Of a DNA stretch of 64,000 nt, positions 17,476 through 23,646 are shown piece after piece (the stretch's first letter is position 1; every line of letters begins with the position of its first letter). The stretch spans positions 109 to 64,108 of the forward strand of contig JAFTSJ010000027.1 of the NCBI GenBank assembly GCA_017467335.1. Reading direction: 5' to 3'. Made by a program: the position numbers and the translations under genes. Under the pieces are notes generated by a model that saw only the letters and a list, made by a program, of their open reading frames with translations, did not search any database and was not told the origin of the DNA. The DNA comes from Alphaproteobacteria bacterium (GTDB taxonomy: Bacteria; Pseudomonadota; Alphaproteobacteria; CAAHEQ01; UBA3637).

Positions 17476-20400
17476 ATGCTTGTTACCGAAATGAAGCAGA
17501 GAATGCGTGCAGATTTTGAAGATAAATTCCGAATTTTAACCGGTACAGCGGAACAAGAACAACAATGGCAAGATTATTTTCAAGGAATTTGCCAACGTTT
17601 GTTAGGACCTCAAATTAATCTTGAAGAACATCCCATTCGCTTTTGCGTTTCTGATAGAAATAGTGTTAATGCGTTTTATCTGCCTCCACAAAAACCTCTT
17701 CCCAACAAATTTTATTTACCGGAAGAATTGGAAGAATTTGAACATCAAATTCCGTGTATTATTATTTATAAAGGTATGTTAGAGGCTGTTCAAAATGAAG
17801 ATCAACTGGCTTTCTTTTTAGGACATGAATTGGGACACTGGAAGACGGATGTATTTGATACAAAAGATACAGAAACACATGAAAATACAAAACTTGAAGA
17901 AGAAACTGCTGATATTCAGTCACTACAGATGATGGCTGATAGTGGTTACAATATCAATGAAGCATATAAAATCAGTGAAGGTTTCTTACATTCGGAAAAA
18001 TTGAATAATGCGGATGAAATAATTACCCGTTCATTGGATCATCATTTGAATAATGAAGACCGATTATTGGCAATCGGGACGACTATTCGACAGTTGGATG
18101 TTGAATATGCCGTTAAGGGGATTGATTTGGATTCTTATTCAACTCATGATATCCCGTTGGAATTTCGGGAGGAAATTAAGCAAAAACATCATGTTTCTCA
18201 AATTAAAAAAGATTTGCGTTCTTTGGGATATTATGATGTGTCTCTGGCTGAAAAACAAGATATTTTATTCAATTATTTAAATACGGTTTTAGCTAGTCGT
18301 GATATAGATGAAGGTTGGTATCTTTCTTTATTAAAAGACGTGTTACAAGAACATATTTTAGAACTGATGCATAATATTCCCAGAACAATTGTTCGTCAAA
18401 GCGATTATAATCTTTTGACACAACGTTTGTCAAAAGATGAATTGCAAAAATTAAAACCCTTATGGCAACAAATTGTTGGGAAACAATATGATTATGAATT
18501 TAATTCCTTTTACCGAAAAGATGTGTTGGATGCTTTTCCGTATAAAGTTGTTCCGGATGATGTGTACGAGCAAGAACACGCCGAGCAGGAAGAAAAACGC
18601 AAGCTGTTTTATCGACAAATTGATTCGGAACAAAATTTAAATGTATTATTTTGGAATCAACTAATGGATTGGGCTGCTCATGGTTATGCAAAAGATTTGT
18701 TTCTTTCATGTGCGGGATTACCTTTATCGGTTGTTCCTCAAATTGATTTAACAAAAACATCTTTTGGGCGTTGGACCAATTCATTTTTTAATGAAGATCA
18801 ACGTGTTTTTGTTGAGTTGATGTCTTACTCAATACACAGTATTCGTGAAAGTGATTTTTCATTGTTGCCGACAGAATTTTTACCTTTTGAGATTCAAAAT
18901 CCTTATCATTGCCTACAACATATTTTTTATCGATTTACCCCTAATTCATTTCCTGAATTAGATTTGGAAATGAGTGAAAATGATTGTCAAAAGTCTATGC
19001 CTCGGTGCTGTTTTGTATCTTACTTATCAGACTCATTCGGTGTCAGAGAAATTAACTATAGCGGACCATCTACAATTGTATCATATGTTCCTCATAATCG
19101 TGACCCGTTTAACAGAAAAAACGCCGAGTGGTGTTATGTTATTGAAAATGGTAAAATTGTTGATTCATTTCCTTATCAGAATAAAGAAAAAACTTGGGAA
19201 CGTGTTCGTAGCAGACACAAATATCAATTTCAAAAAGCAGTTGCCGATCATATCAAAGATGTGTATGGTATGCTTATGAAAATAAAAGAAAATTATCAAA
19301 CTCACGGATTAAACGCTCATCAATTAAGATTGGTAAAATCGTTCACATCTCCGGGGGCGTTTTTTAAAATTTCGTCATCAGCGGCTCAACGATATTTTGA
19401 TACATTAAACGATGAACAAAACGTATCTTATACAGGACGGGATCGAAAAAAACAAATAATGGCTTTTTTCCGTTCACAAGGTAATATCGGTTATCTTTTT
19501 GATTTTGAAACTTTCTACGATGAAGATTTGTTAAAAACATTTTTAACGGAAGAAGAAAGAGCCTTTTTCTTTGACGGATATAATGCTGATAATGACAACC
19601 TTGTTTTTCAAGCACTTCGAGCCGGTCATTTTGAAAATCCGGAAGAATTTAAGTGGTTGTTGGCGTGTGGAGATAATTTTTGTTGGTTTTCAGAATATGT
19701 TGAGATAGAGAACGGATATGACCACTTGCATACGAATCGGCAAGTTTTACAATATTTACATGATTATTTGAACCAGTTGTCAACGGATGAAATCCAGAAA
19801 CAGACACAATTACAACAAAGAGTTTTTGATGTTGAATGGAGAAATTTACATTATTTTGTGGAAAAACAATTAGAGGAAAATCCGCAACTGACAGGAGCTG
19901 ATGTTGATTTTTCGTCTTATTCTTATTTGATATTGGATGAAATGGCTGAAAAATTGGGTGTTCCCATTCATTTTTCGGATTACAGTATTGCCGAACATGG
20001 CATTCATAAAGGAAAAGTTGATTTTAGATGGAATAATCGTATTGCTGAAATTTTGAAAAAAAATAAAATTGCTGATAAGGGTATGAATATAAATCGTTAT
20101 AATATACAGTCGTTTATGCTTATCATGTATATTTTAACTGATGAAACACATACATTGCCGTTAGGTGAAATTTTTATTGATCAAGATATCATCTATTCAT
20201 TACTTCCTTATCCGTGTTTGGAAGAAAAATTATTACCATTTTTGTATCGCCGCAAAAATTACCCGACTGATTCGGTTGAAGCGTTGAAAACTTTTAGTAA
20301 TATTATTCGACCGTTAAGAAAAAGTACGGCTCCTATATTTAATGTCGCATTGGATATTGTGCTTGATGAAAAGGATATTCAAAAATCACTGGAAGCGGCT

Positions 20401-23400: not shown

Positions 23401-23646
23401 ATGTCGGCGGAAGATATGATTATGGAAAAATTAGCTAATCGAGATTTACAACGCAGTTTGACAGAATCTGTTAAAAAAATCATTTGTGATTTTGTTGGTG
23501 ATTTTATGCCGAAAGGTCTTGTGACAGATAATACGGTAGCAATAACACCGATGGAAAATCCACAAACGGACATTGTTTCGGGGCAATCACATCCCCCGAA
23601 AAAAACAAGAAAATTTTTGACGCTTTTTTCTCAAGGTCGCAAATAA
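17476..23646 (+). CDS. Giant cytoplasmic or effector-like protein (about 2,056 aa): N-terminal M48-type zinc-metallopeptidase-like domain plus an internal ABC1/UbiB atypical-kinase-like domain
   Basis: Single uninterrupted ORF. Start chosen at ATG 17476, behind a GAGGAG RBS (the ORF track opens at GTG 17449). Motifs: FLGHELGHW (17824-17838 encodes HELGH); GPAAIKLGQAMASCPEVP..EL..LKSQAARP; FDHDRHGEQL; LFDTGAM. Confidence 0.8.
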   Translation: MLVTEMKQRMRADFEDKFRILTGTAEQEQQWQDYFQGICQRLLGPQINLEEHPIRFCVSDRNSVNAFYLPPQKPLPNKFYLPEELEEFEHQIPCIIIYKGMLEAVQNEDQLAFFLGHELGHWKTDVFDTKDTETHENTKLEEETADIQSLQMMADSGYNINEAYKISEGFLHSEKLNNADEIITRSLDHHLNNEDRLLAIGTTIRQLDVEYAVKGIDLDSYSTHDIPLEFREEIKQKHHVSQIKKDLRSLGYYDVSLAEKQDILFNYLNTVLASRDIDEGWYLSLLKDVLQEHILELMHNIPRTIVRQSDYNLLTQRLSKDELQKLKPLWQQIVGKQYDYEFNSFYRKDVLDAFPYKVVPDDVYEQEHAEQEEKRKLFYRQIDSEQNLNVLFWNQLMDWAAHGYAKDLFLSCAGLPLSVVPQIDLTKTSFGRWTNSFFNEDQRVFVELMSYSIHSIRESDFSLLPTEFLPFEIQNPYHCLQHIFYRFTPNSFPELDLEMSENDCQKSMPRCCFVSYLSDSFGVREINYSGPSTIVSYVPHNRDPFNRKNAEWCYVIENGKIVDSFPYQNKEKTWERVRSRHKYQFQKAVADHIKDVYGMLMKIKENYQTHGLNAHQLRLVKSFTSPGAFFKISSSAAQRYFDTLNDEQNVSYTGRDRKKQIMAFFRSQGNIGYLFDFETFYDEDLLKTFLTEEERAFFFDGYNADNDNLVFQALRAGHFENPEEFKWLLACGDNFCWFSEYVEIENGYDHLHTNRQVLQYLHDYLNQLSTDEIQKQTQLQQRVFDVEWRNLHYFVEKQLEENPQLTGADVDFSSYSYLILDEMAEKLGVPIHFSDYSIAEHGIHKGKVDFRWNNRIAEILKKNKIADKGMNINRYNIQSFMLIMYILTDETHTLPLGEIFIDQDIIYSLLPYPCLEEKLLPFLYRRKNYPTDSVEALKTFSNIIRPLRKSTAPIFNVALDIVLDEKDIQKSLEAAVLFAQSLQYYPDIRLVNPLKDKLCANLAVFQKDVPLEIRIDAYLRLNAEKGFSDDYVIQNQLLNSFLDEIQKIDNPQIRNQFYTHFILLKNRIVDPDIRRTYQKRWVESVFEVCGSRIDDNSSKLHEKISGYLSVLHGKTTTKKYEDNGLDVNFDENNVAVADQYEIARLLADKFVSQEELSFMIEPQVSNPLTQSKGSLKQEHYQIVAWDTVKYTISHNPSEAKLLMDFLLSDGTLAACEAYRTHLESIVLYPPSSKSFQVFYREFWQYPLEVRSVLLCSILGSASRTEDVDNSNRWEAMFNIVAPRIFSNSENPLHQSARSFLYSYIKSRKPNERGLYLAAMLVAANGNKNIADPDKCMAVGIRLFLENSGPAAIKLGQAMASCPEVPRFIREELDCLKSQAARPARWELYKWLREYQQNGDDTLDFGPSVWLGNILGAASYFVTLEQGQMDDENHAQTSDKVIKILRGGAQELAKEEFGIFESTLIDLAQKNFFSDNLDTFIRLVQQAKESSHIETNLDIGYAQLETAQNLYEGRQIAVDGHIFDLHVCDWTKRGKNWAVLERANGTDLKKITDLAYKQSVSKAYFTVELMNILSGSRFDHDRHGEQLKINTETNTVQLFDTGAMAVVDPTPQDKQVLGRVVYRIMQRSIDEQTEQLAIGNVAKILVEEIDKVYKTGEIIGPYLTEFQRGLLALKDFYNNLTPNDIIACFNTALNQDDMPVDKNILAGFVREGIRSIGIFETSYPLLSEENKEILGRVLFTASAIGMSSDKHSIQDVLNFAVCRMKEQHGEHPLLNIISTKISQDNHIVGLDLPKELIPTIQEMISDESYLDTSILKGAVKEIIETVNLQEQKDNYSSEDRQAFGRLLYDAYLLTQNNTSVNLTEAFLQAQKSGQHRTELGCKMAAIVRIIQSFADNDTTNGIRTEDIVRATLLSGHMDTEITKGIVEQFEKTSTGNQFKRSLTAKGLQWFLSQEKKEMGFVKRMLRWKLGVKKEALMSAEDMIMEKLANRDLQRSLTESVKKIICDFVGDFMPKGLVTDNTVAITPMENPQTDIVSGQSHPPKKTRKFLTLFSQGRK

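Follow-up and report, generated by a model that had tools for sequence, protein, structure and literature searches.

The 64-kb window, the whole stretch of DNA that was analysed here, carries at 17476..23646 (+ strand) a single unbroken gene with zero internal stops, a complete CDS of 2,056 amino acids (aa) plus the stop codon, encoding a protein of ~238 kDa and pI 5.3. The open reading frame (ORF) counted from its first GTG spans 17449–23646, and the ATG at 17476 is preceded, 6 nt upstream, by a Shine-Dalgarno-like GAGGAG (17464..17469, + strand) read from the sequence. Between the convergent stop codons lies a hairpin with a 13-bp stem (23667..23699), which was reported on the minus strand only in a scan for terminator-like sites and which we infer to end the + strand gene. 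The encoded protein is identical to GenBank MBQ9090094.1 (‘M48 family metalloprotease’, from an alphaproteobacterial metagenome-assembled genome (MAG)). Its exact 2,056-aa sequence is present on five contigs in public collections (NCBI, ENA and Logan) and full-length relatives of 1,978–2,076 aa occur in 15 or more further MAG species, and the gene is therefore neither an assembly chimera nor a pseudogene. A chimera or decaying pseudogene mimicking a fusion protein could be suspected since the source is a metagenome-assembled genome and since the ORF of one relative, L009 (CAG:495), ends at 1,545 aa although the similarity extends further downstream; however, the five contigs are independent, the same end-to-end architecture recurs in at least 15 species and hundreds of clusters, and the dN/dS of the protein is 0.06–0.17, which leaves this explanation scarcely credible. 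The uninterrupted fusion of about 2,060 aa described in the earlier note thus withstood scrutiny, as did its view that neither a signal peptide nor a transmembrane (TM) helix is present (best 19-residue Kyte-Doolittle mean, 1.37). The cysteine content of MBQ9090094.1 (1.17%) is as in cytoplasmic proteins encoded in the same window, BamA containing 0%. MBQ9090094.1 is an intact giant soluble protein of five parts: an M48 domain, a lineage-specific middle region, a helical module, a UbiB/ABC1-type domain and a helical tail.

The N-terminal part (aa 1–240; 17476..18195, + strand) is a soluble M48-type zinc metallopeptidase domain. Pfam PF01435 matches MBQ9090094.1 at 32.2 bits (gathering threshold 20.3; E=1.2e-7) and also matches 13 of 19 close relatives. 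A profile of the family (A4) matches the M48 peptidase of PDB entry 3C37 at E=2.8e-9 over profile positions 29–195 (~165 positions), in an alignment that covers the HExxH and HP..R motifs as well as the zinc ligand in E-x-x-A-D, and matches BepA weakly. The motifs quoted for this region in the earlier note are all present (NAFYLPP, H117-E118-L-G-H121 and E141-E142-E143-T-A-D146), which together with the PF01435 score and the 3C37 match upholds its M48 assignment. The zinc-binding and catalytic motif HELGH (H117, E118 and H121; 17824..17838, + strand) is followed by E142 (17899..17901, + strand), the predicted third zinc ligand, which lies in an E-x-x-A-D motif (EETAD) aligned with E-N-Q-A-D of 3C37 and E-Q-E-A-D of BepA; its role as a ligand is one that we take from general knowledge of the M48 family. 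As judged from sequence, therefore, aa 1–240 are an M48 domain with three predicted zinc ligands and a catalytic Glu, and proteolysis is the predicted activity. HELGH is kept in MBQ9090094.1 and in the relatives L001–L006, P0003 and L019, and is lost in L007–L017 and P0004.

The middle region (aa 241–1020, ~780 aa; 18196..20535, + strand) is found only in close relatives, being detectable in 5–7 of 150 family representatives, and yielded no Pfam or PDB matches and no internal repeats; its dN/dS is the highest of the whole protein (0.27–0.51 in clade A pairs). It is followed by a family-wide helical module (aa 1021–1290; 20536..21345, + strand), which directly precedes the kinase-like domain, is found in 135 of the 150 representatives, contains the conserved motifs RI.DP..R, DD.S, VSQ and EFW.YPLE.R, and is helical in the AlphaFold model with pLDDT mostly 80–93. 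The C-terminal helical region (aa 1721–2056; 22636..23643, + strand), whose single structure model has low confidence, is shared by closer relatives only, its two halves being matched in 17/150 and 7/150 representatives; its last 30 residues carry a net charge of +4 (0 to +6 in relatives). As the earlier note had said of these parts, no recognised motif is evident: aa 241–1290 and 1721–2056 have no Pfam, NCBIfam or PDB sequence match, and about 1,100 aa of the protein carry no domain assignment.

Between the helical module and the tail lies a divergent UbiB/ABC1-type atypical kinase-like (ATPase) domain (aa 1291–1720; 21346..22635, + strand). TIGR01982 matches MBQ9090094.1 at E=1e-7 and 30.9 bits, far below its curated cut-off of 487.55; PF03109 (Pfam ABC1) does not match MBQ9090094.1 itself and matches 12 of 24 diverse relatives (best E=2.2e-8). 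Since the curated cut-offs of these UbiB models are not reached, the domain belongs to a divergent superfamily member and not to a UbiB orthologue. Its kinship is nevertheless apparent by profile–profile alignment with E. coli UbiB (hhalign probability 95%, E=2.4e-8), from the match to PDB entry 5YJZ (E=3.8e-4) and from matches to canonical UbiB proteins at E=1e-8 and 3e-7. An AlphaFold model of aa 1021–1720 (pLDDT 80.5, pTM 0.79) was compared with known structures by Foldseek: ranks 1–12 were all COQ8A, MSMEG_1954 or Rv3197 (E from 1e-7 to 1e-4; target-normalised TM-score 0.36–0.65), whereas generic protein kinases appeared only at E>1e-3, at least 10-fold worse than the UbiB-family structures. 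The ABC1/UbiB-like assignment proposed earlier is thus backed by profile, profile–profile and structure-model evidence.

The motifs of the domain are G1348-P-A-A-I-K1353-L-G-Q1356, V-I-K1442-I-L-R, F-D1578-H-D1580-R-H1582-G-E-Q1585 and F-D1599-T-G1601, and hhalign pairs them with KxGQ, VIKVIRP, FHADMHPGN and IDCG of E. coli UbiB. The first, GPAAIKLGQ (21517..21543, + strand; matching GPVWIKFGQ in E. coli UbiB), is the KxGQ signature that marks the N-terminal extension of UbiB, and its K and its Q are each present in 145 of 150 representatives. In the catalytic-loop equivalent DHDRHGEQ (22207..22230, + strand; aligned to HADMHPGN of UbiB), D1578, D1580 and H1582 are each found in 144/150, and the position of the catalytic-loop Asn is Gln1585 (Q in 134/150, N in 10/150). 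The DFG-equivalent D1599-T-G1601 (22270..22278, + strand), with its metal-binding Asp, has D in 146/150 and G in 144/150. The active-site residues are near-invariant across the 150 representatives, with the exception of the equivalent of the beta-3 lysine (K1442; 21799..21801, + strand), which is K in MBQ9090094.1 but in only 29 of the 150; in many members nucleotides may hence be bound in an unconventional way or not at all. The kinase-like reading of the earlier note held for the fold, the model of aa 1021–1720 being closest to UbiB-family structures; among the catalytic residues D1580, H1582 and D1599 are present and near-invariant, whereas Gln1585 replaces the Asn and the beta-3 lysine of MBQ9090094.1 is not conserved across the family. 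Overall, on sequence and model, aa ~1291–1720 are a divergent member of the UbiB/ABC1 fold for which nucleotide chemistry is predicted.

MBQ9090094.1 is one of many such proteins. A family search returned 580 representatives at E<=1e-3 (516 at E<=1e-10), and the kinase-like domain is common to ~500–580 clusters at 50% identity. Members are mostly 1,400–2,900 aa long, usually with the M48 domain at the N-terminus and the conserved helical module before the kinase-like domain; the M48 domain occurs in 93 of the best 150 representatives and the helical module in 135, and some members of the family carry extra EF-hand or glutamine-synthetase-like domains. Uncultured bacteria (Alphaproteobacteria MAGs or unclassified ‘bacterium’) are the source of every named member, the close relatives being mostly gut-derived MAGs; the one contig labelled Lachnospiraceae (L008) is probably mis-binned. 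In databases these proteins go by no other name than ‘M48 family metalloprotease’ or ‘hypothetical protein’, and a literature search found no published account of the architecture or of its large family, in agreement with the earlier note, which knew of no description of the architecture. MBQ9090094.1 is a real and new domain architecture built from two known folds, with its biochemistry predicted. Both the size of the family and the existence of a sister clade lacking the catalytic sites had escaped the earlier note. In that sister clade the orthologues have lost the zinc-binding histidines, and the whole clade is without both active sites yet is still under purifying selection: dN/dS is 0.06–0.17 for the protein and 0.02–0.09 for the kinase domain, the catalytically dead clade included.

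The earlier note placed the gene in a tRNA-linked accessory block, a claim that the genomic context does not bear out. A tRNA-Asp gene does lie 2.3 kb upstream, but its 3' end is not repeated anywhere else in the window. A Pfam scan of 35 window ORFs (~15 smaller ORFs falling outside it) revealed no integrase, no secretion-system component other than flagellar genes and no ubi gene, and none of the neighbouring genes read at related loci is a ubi gene either. Otherwise the window consists of core chromosome (BamA, LpxB/D, MutS, ProRS, MurC and flagellar genes). In 15 related loci, drawn from both clades, the orthologue adjoins ppdK and is followed downstream by rplM-rpsI or by rsmE/cmk; BLAST comparison of the flanks was confined to these loci among themselves, and the genes read around them have housekeeping roles. 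With orthologues so placed among housekeeping genes in 15 related genomes, the gene is one that a gut lineage has inherited vertically at a housekeeping locus. MBQ9090094.1 evolves faster than most of its neighbours, with an amino-acid identity of 52% versus 58–95% for six flanking proteins (79–95% for four of them), and of 36–65% where PPDK shows 91–98%. A seventh flanking protein, which is pilin-like, shows 35% identity, so fast evolution is not unique to the fusion gene. Synonymous divergence (dS) is a mosaic inside the gene, which indicates recombination.

These observations bear on whether the protein acts outside the cell that makes it. As a translocated or exported effector, which the earlier note thought the most plausible reading, it would leave through a system independent of Sec (T4SS, T1SS or other), and its site of action would be a host, protist or competitor cell, where protease and UbiB-like module would attack host membrane or lipidated proteins. 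A 238-kDa acidic protein with no Sec/Tat signal or TM helix would suit such a role, as would a cysteine content that fits a reducing compartment, the rapid and recombining evolution just described (the pilin-like neighbour being fast too) and a family whose named members are all uncultured and whose close relatives are mostly from the gut; the positive C-terminal charge is suggestive at most. Modular domain accretion is common in effectors, and EF-hand or glutamine-synthetase-like domains have been added in some members. However, flagellar genes are the only secretion-related components among the Pfam-scanned ORFs of the window, the gene is single-copy and syntenic with housekeeping flanks in 15 genomes, MBQ9090094.1 itself has no eukaryote-like domain, and a UbiB fold occluded by KxGQ is without known protein phosphorylation, so that we consider an effector possible but rather doubtful. 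The combination of an NTP-using domain with a protease, which is common in large multidomain proteins of conflict systems, and again the relatively fast evolution with recombination, could also suggest anti-phage defence or an inter-bacterial toxin, with the protein as a large single-gene NTPase-plus-protease sensor or executioner. Against such a role, no PADLOC model matched and the one marginal PHROGs match (E=0.0088) was to a model of unknown function, no homologue was found on plasmids, no conserved adjacent immunity-like or partner gene and no defence islands are present in the flanks, and the gene is conserved and syntenic across the whole lineage rather than patchy; a defence or toxin function is accordingly highly improbable.

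The account that we favour, with a probability of roughly 60%, is that of an intact, vertically inherited giant M48 and UbiB-like protein in which an ATPase- or lipid-type module and a protease are carried on a scaffold. The KxGQ lid of COQ8A blocks protein substrates, and its retention here suggests a nucleotide-driven ATPase or a small-molecule/lipid-handling engine, rather than a protein kinase. The UbiB-like module would thus work in the manner of COQ8/UbiB, the M48 domain may supply proteolysis on the same target, the shared target is probably membrane- or lipid-associated, and the long helical parts would form the scaffold. Since purifying selection persists in the sister clade although both its sites are dead, much of the function appears to lie in a scaffold or binding role that needs no catalysis, and the two enzyme activities may be an add-on that MBQ9090094.1 still retains. 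Weighing on this account are the lack of a membrane anchor in MBQ9090094.1, known UbiB and M48 enzymes being membrane-bound or periplasmic, and the Gln at the catalytic-loop Asn position. For the site of action our estimates are ~45% for the inside of the bacterium and ~30% for export or translocation by a non-Sec route, the rest falling to other possibilities. M48 proteases are related to Ste24, HtpX and OMA1, and a more speculative reading, which we regard as distinctly unlikely, is that these form a hitherto unnoticed class of giant exported or translocated interaction proteins in which a UbiB-type, nucleotide-driven module for handling lipids or isoprenoids, mechanically coupled to the M48 protease, would extract and cleave lipid-anchored (e.g. 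prenylated) or membrane-embedded targets in another cell, with the dead orthologues serving as binding or decoy scaffolds. If true, this would be the first UbiB-fold domain to be used beyond quinone and lipid homeostasis in the cell that produces it.

Among known systems, multidomain bacterial effectors with atypical kinase folds include Legionella SidJ, LegK and Lpg2603. MBQ9090094.1 resembles these in being large and helical, in combining a divergent kinase-like domain with a second predicted enzymatic domain and in lacking a Sec signal, but no homology to them was detected. In a survey of the Legionella kinome, UbiB/ABC1 is listed only as a non-effector housekeeping kinase (PMC9758233). Compared with soluble or minimal M48 peptidases (Geobacter sulfurreducens 3C37, BepA/YfgC and LoiP/YggG; more distantly HtpX, Ste24 and OMA1), the protein shares the succession NAF...(I/V)xxGLL...NEDxLAxxLxHELxH, then E-x-x-A-D, then HP..xxR, and has a compact M48 domain of ~200 aa as in 3C37. 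Unlike them, it lacks a signal peptide, a lipobox, a TPR domain and a TM helix, its M48 domain is the N-terminus of a giant cytosolic-type protein, and its sister-clade orthologues are without the zinc-binding histidines. The comparators for the second domain were E. coli UbiB, human COQ8A/ADCK3 (PDB 4PED, 5I35 and 7UDQ), M. smegmatis MSMEG_1954 and M. tuberculosis Rv3197. In contrast to these UbiB/ABC1/ADCK proteins, with which identity is just ~12–18% and whose curated cut-off it falls far under, MBQ9090094.1 has Gln for the catalytic-loop Asn (and the beta-3 Lys varies in the wider family), has no C-terminal TM helices, shows no ubiquinone-gene link among the 35 Pfam-scanned window ORFs or the related-locus neighbours, and embeds the domain in a ~2,000-aa protein, where a 270-aa helical module specific to the family precedes it and a protease is fused to it. 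What it shares with them is the same atypical protein-kinase-like fold in the predicted model (the Foldseek top 12), the KxGQ motif within an N-terminal helical extension, and an Ala/Ser-rich nucleotide loop (GAASYF versus ASASIAQ); in addition, the beta-3 segment VIKILR can be aligned with VIKVIRP, the catalytic loop D-R-H-G-E-Q with D-M-H-P-G-N, and DTG with DCG.

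The gene at 17476-23646 on the forward strand lies within an ORF that opens at a first GTG (17449-23646), and an ATG at 17476, placed 6 nt past a GAGGAG box (17464-17469), yields a protein of 2,056 aa, ~238 kDa and pI 5.3. The coordinates, length and motifs quoted for this protein in an earlier note on the same DNA were all right, and the interruption of the ORF that the note had considered was not seen: the translation contains no internal stop and the gene is intact. The protein matches MBQ9090094.1 exactly, and five contigs across NCBI, ENA and Logan carry the sequence; that an assembly artefact or a pseudogene merely mimics a fusion protein is very unlikely.

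The N-terminal part of the giant protein matched the M48 peptidase family in Pfam (PF01435) at 32.2 bits against a gathering score of 20.3 (E=1.2e-7). A profile of aa 1-240 built from 17 orthologues (A4), when compared with the PDB, aligned at E=2.8e-9 to 3C37, an M48 peptidase of known structure; two collinear segments together spanned profile positions 29-195, and this alignment took in the NAF, GLL...NEDxLAxxLxHELxH, E-x-x-A-D and HP..xxR motifs; BepA was a weak match of the same profile, and a single-sequence phmmer search of the PDB with the whole protein gave zero matches. The predicted zinc ligands are H117, H121 and E142, with E118 as the predicted catalytic residue. The N-terminal domain, as the earlier note had proposed, is thus an M48 peptidase which by its motifs has a complete active site and for which activity is predicted.

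The fold of the kinase-like part was examined by several comparisons. The NCBIfam model for UbiB (TIGR01982) aligned to aa 1333-1629 over profile positions 45-327 (E=1e-7), at a score (30.9 bits) far below the curated cut-off of 487.55. A profile confined to close relatives (A3) did not retrieve UbiB structures from the PDB, and hhalign with A3 aligned the KxGQ stretch alone (probability 54%). Since A3 found no UbiB structure, distant relatives were taken from an exhaustive search of cluster representatives to build a wider, 24-sequence alignment of aa 1021-1720 (A7). With A7, hhalign matched E. coli UbiB over 265 columns at a probability of 95% (E=2.4e-8), pairing GPAAIKLGQ with GPVWIKFGQ, GAASYF with ASASIAQ, KVIKILRGG with VVIKVIRPD, IETNLD with IDELNL, FDHDRHGEQLKI with FHADMHPGNIFV and FDTG with IDCG. 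The same alignment matched the mycobacterial UbiB-family protein Rv3197 in the PDB (5YJZ, E=3.8e-4) and recovered canonical UbiB proteins of 560 aa (E=1e-8 and 3e-7), and half of its members (12 of 24) matched Pfam ABC1, with a best E of 2.2e-8. An AlphaFold2 model of aa 1021-1720 (mean pLDDT 80.5, pTM 0.79) was compared with the PDB by Foldseek, and ranks 1 to 12 were occupied by the UbiB family only, namely COQ8A (7UDQ, 5I35, 7UDP, 4PED), MSMEG_1954 and Rv3197, with E from 1.7e-7 to 1e-4 and target-normalised TM-scores of 0.36-0.65; ordinary protein kinases first appeared at E=1.4e-3. A model of aa 1101-2056 made with four sequences was poor (pLDDT 55) and was set aside, and hhalign comparisons among the helical segments detected no internal duplication (all probabilities <4%). 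Overall, the profile, hhalign, Pfam and AlphaFold2/Foldseek results place the kinase-like domain in aa 1021-1720, by fold and motif, within the UbiB superfamily, as a divergent member and not as a UbiB orthologue; the ABC1/UbiB assignment first made from motifs is therefore borne out by both profile and structure searches. By its motifs the domain has a complete UbiB-type site, with Q1585 at the position of the catalytic-loop Asn, and its biochemistry is predicted.

Word-indexed protein searches, including those with profiles, returned only 4-8 relatives, and the family came to light by the exhaustive representative search, in which a kinase-domain profile run on representatives of 50%-identity clusters matched 580 at E<=1e-3, 516 at E<=1e-10 and 275 at E<=1e-30. 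Custom HMMs of the segments of the giant protein were then used to scan the best 150 representatives. The N-terminal M48 domain was found in 93 of them, in almost every case with HExxH at about residues 100-170, and a 270-aa helical module (aa 1021-1290), which directly precedes the kinase domain and has conserved motifs of its own, including VSQ and (N/E)FW..P(L)E.RA, was found in 135; the middle (aa 241-1020) and C-terminal (aa 1721-2056) regions were common to close relatives only. A subgroup of ~1,800 aa has no detectable M48 domain. Some distant members carry a glutamine-synthetase catalytic-like domain or EF-hand motifs C-terminal of the kinase-like domain (P0118 aa 1709-1890, P0124 aa 2368-2452 and P0134 aa 1843-1902). 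Near-invariant positions across the family are GP...K.(G/A)Q, R1445, E1493, D1578, D1580, R1581, H1582, D1599, G1601 and Q1585, the last being N in 10 of the 150. The beta-3 lysine is the canonical ATP-anchoring residue of kinases. The corresponding position (K1442, nt 21799-21801) is K in 29 of the 150 representatives, with S, R, T and A common, and this variation, together with the near-invariant R1445 and KxGQ lysine, hints at non-canonical nucleotide binding. Exact-sequence look-up of 20 representatives gave source names for four clusters ("Alphaproteobacteria bacterium" twice, "bacterium" once and "hypothetical protein" without organism once); no named member comes from a cultured isolate, and automatic annotation calls these proteins just "M48 family metalloprotease". 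The literature on M48, UbiB, effectors, kinase-like proteins and Legionella yielded no account of the architecture, in agreement with the earlier note, which knew of none, and papers on RF32 gut Alphaproteobacteria offered nothing that bears on the giant protein. The giant protein represents a new architecture, made from two known folds and two unassigned regions, that defines a sizeable family of which we found no description.

Genes for BamA, LpxB/LpxD, RseP, PtsP, glucokinase, MutS, ProRS, MurC, RsmB, FlhF/FlhG and FliF/FliG mark the window as core chromosome of a flagellated diderm. A tRNA-Asp lies 2.3 kb upstream of the giant gene, and between the two is a forward-strand gene (15549-17321), directly upstream of the giant gene, for a 590-aa protein with MORN_2 repeats, which NCBI calls a 'YwqK family antitoxin'; cysteine makes up an unusually high 6.95% of its residues, and it is not kept beside the giant gene in relatives. 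A gene for a 335-aa hypothetical protein is convergent with the giant gene. The 3' end of the tRNA-Asp is not repeated in the window, and a Pfam scan of 35 ORFs identified none as an integrase (~15 smaller ORFs fell outside the scan); on these grounds the idea of an integrated island was rejected. The tRNA-linked accessory block to which the gene had been assigned is thus unsupported, given the core-chromosome setting, the lack of a tRNA-Asp 3' repeat and the housekeeping loci occupied in relatives. Elsewhere in the window, a 256-aa phage tail collar domain protein (37005-37775, forward strand) lies among core chromosomal genes with no other phage genes seen nearby. In a single forward-strand ORF (40129-42006) a match to the FliF C-terminal domain (YscJ_FliF_C) precedes the N, M and C domains of FliG, all complete; such a FliF-FliG fusion could be natural or come from mis-joining of the ORF. 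Pfam gave no match for the ORF of 487 aa upstream (38134-39597).

A genome scan surveying for orthologues found 17 relatives matching over most of the length (L001-L017) and a more distant one (L019), and a protein search added a further full-length relative (P0003, 2,076 aa). Those from the genome scan are gut MAGs of human, ruminant and other origin, including "Proteobacteria bacterium CAG:495", and 15 of them have uninterrupted full-length ORFs of 1,978-2,050 aa. L010 is truncated by a contig end; in L009 (9977-16150, the CAG:495 genome) the ORF stops at 1,545 aa and protein similarity runs on to 16150, so that the early stop could reflect pseudogenisation, a frameshift or faulty sequencing of the scaffold. 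At 15 related loci a ~890-aa gene (e.g. L008:752-3406, minus strand) stands next to the giant gene in divergent orientation; it is labelled PPDK-like on its length and 22-24% similarity to the PtsP of the window. Downstream, as identified from reading the sequences, one clade has rplM-rpsI and the other has rsmE and cmk together with genes for a methyltransferase and a response regulator; only in the window genome does the giant gene occupy a different place. The shared PPDK-like neighbour and the housekeeping genes downstream therefore indicate that the gene in relatives is vertically inherited at a housekeeping locus and is not part of an accessory island. A PPDK-like gene also lies within ~8 kb of the giant gene in L019, and in the window 4.5 kb separate it from the upstream gene of PtsP (10640-12919), an enzyme that uses PEP; the proximity of PPDK-like and PtsP genes is probably inherited synteny. 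Despite its 'Lachnospiraceae bacterium' label, the L008 contig (CAVBCV010000032.1) aligns collinearly with L014 over 17.6 kb at 87.6% nucleotide identity, and its gene order recurs in other alphaproteobacterial MAG loci; the contig has probably been mis-binned.

Comparison of these relatives separated two groups, which share the PPDK-like synteny and are therefore orthologues. In the intact group (the window, L001-L006, P0003 and L019) the M48 motifs HE(L/F)xH and E-E-x-x-x-D and the kinase motif D-(H/C)-D-R-H-x-x-Q are kept. In the other (L007-L017 and P0004) the M48 site reads NTELKH, SYELKF or GREIIL, without the zinc-binding histidines (columns of aa 117-121), and the kinase site reads DHNQLGHL, DHRQLGWQ or YHERFGFV, without the catalytic Asp and His (columns of aa 1578-1585); a ~2,000-aa ORF is still present. 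Pairs of sequences from this clade gave dN/dS of 0.06-0.10 and pairs from the intact one 0.15-0.17, with the kinase domain most constrained (0.02-0.09) and the lineage-specific middle least (up to 0.51). Judged on these residues, the clade is a conserved, predicted double pseudoenzyme, and since purifying selection acts on a ~2,000-aa protein after loss of both sites, that protein must have an important non-catalytic role.

Between genomes, the giant protein is 36-65% identical where the PPDK-like protein is 91-98%. An extreme rate acceleration, which this comparison would suggest, was rejected because PPDK and ribosomal proteins are exceptionally conserved: between L008 and L011 the giant protein is 52% identical, four other neighbours 79-83%, two 58-61% and a pilin-like protein 35%. 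The giant protein thus evolves faster than much of its neighbourhood but is not alone in this. Within-gene dS was strongly heterogeneous in some pairs; for L007:32-6028 and L015:5924-11914 it was ~0.06-0.075 in the first ~1,000 codons and 1.0-1.6 beyond, a mosaic that points to a recombination breakpoint or else to chimeric MAGs.

With regard to function, the KxGQ extension of COQ8A is reported, from the work of Stefely et al. in 2015 (PDB 4PED) and later COQ8 work, to block the protein-substrate groove, and COQ8A is said to act as a lipid-activated ATPase and not as a protein kinase. Because KxGQ is strictly conserved in the giant protein, we propose a COQ8A-like activity, and the analogy would suggest that it is driven by nucleotide and directed at small molecules or lipids; the helical scaffold would couple it to the M48 protease. 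The probability of an intracellular role is estimated at about 45%. The giant protein has no signal peptide or TM helix (best 19-residue Kyte-Doolittle mean 1.37), as had been noted previously, and its cysteine content (1.17%) resembles that of the cytoplasmic proteins of the window (BamA, 0%). That it is instead an effector, exported or translocated by a non-Sec route, is a hypothesis rated somewhat less likely. A role in defence or as a toxin is unlikely: PADLOC gave no match to the giant protein, PHROGs gave just one, marginal and of unknown function, no homologue was found on PLSDB plasmids, and these results led us to reject the defence-system idea; the distribution, moreover, is not patchy.

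The UbiB/ABC1/ADCK proteins have an ancient origin and matter to medicine, as in COQ8A ataxia, and how they work is poorly understood. With its several hundred sequence clusters, the family constitutes a natural experiment on the capabilities of the UbiB fold, showing which residues count as indispensable (it retains KxGQ, D-x-D-R-H and DxG but not the beta-3 Lys), and its double-dead clade is an informative branch that shows what follows once catalysis is abandoned. The results also draw attention to a large family of proteins, from gut Alphaproteobacteria that are uncultured and have been little studied; the family would be a new effector type if exported, and its significance would rise sharply with demonstrated export or a lipid-anchored substrate. 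The known UbiB/ABC1/ADCK members are, to our knowledge, stand-alone, membrane-associated proteins tied to quinone or lipid homeostasis; the UbiB-type domain of the giant protein is a permanent part of a longer polypeptide, together with a protease and a large helical scaffold.
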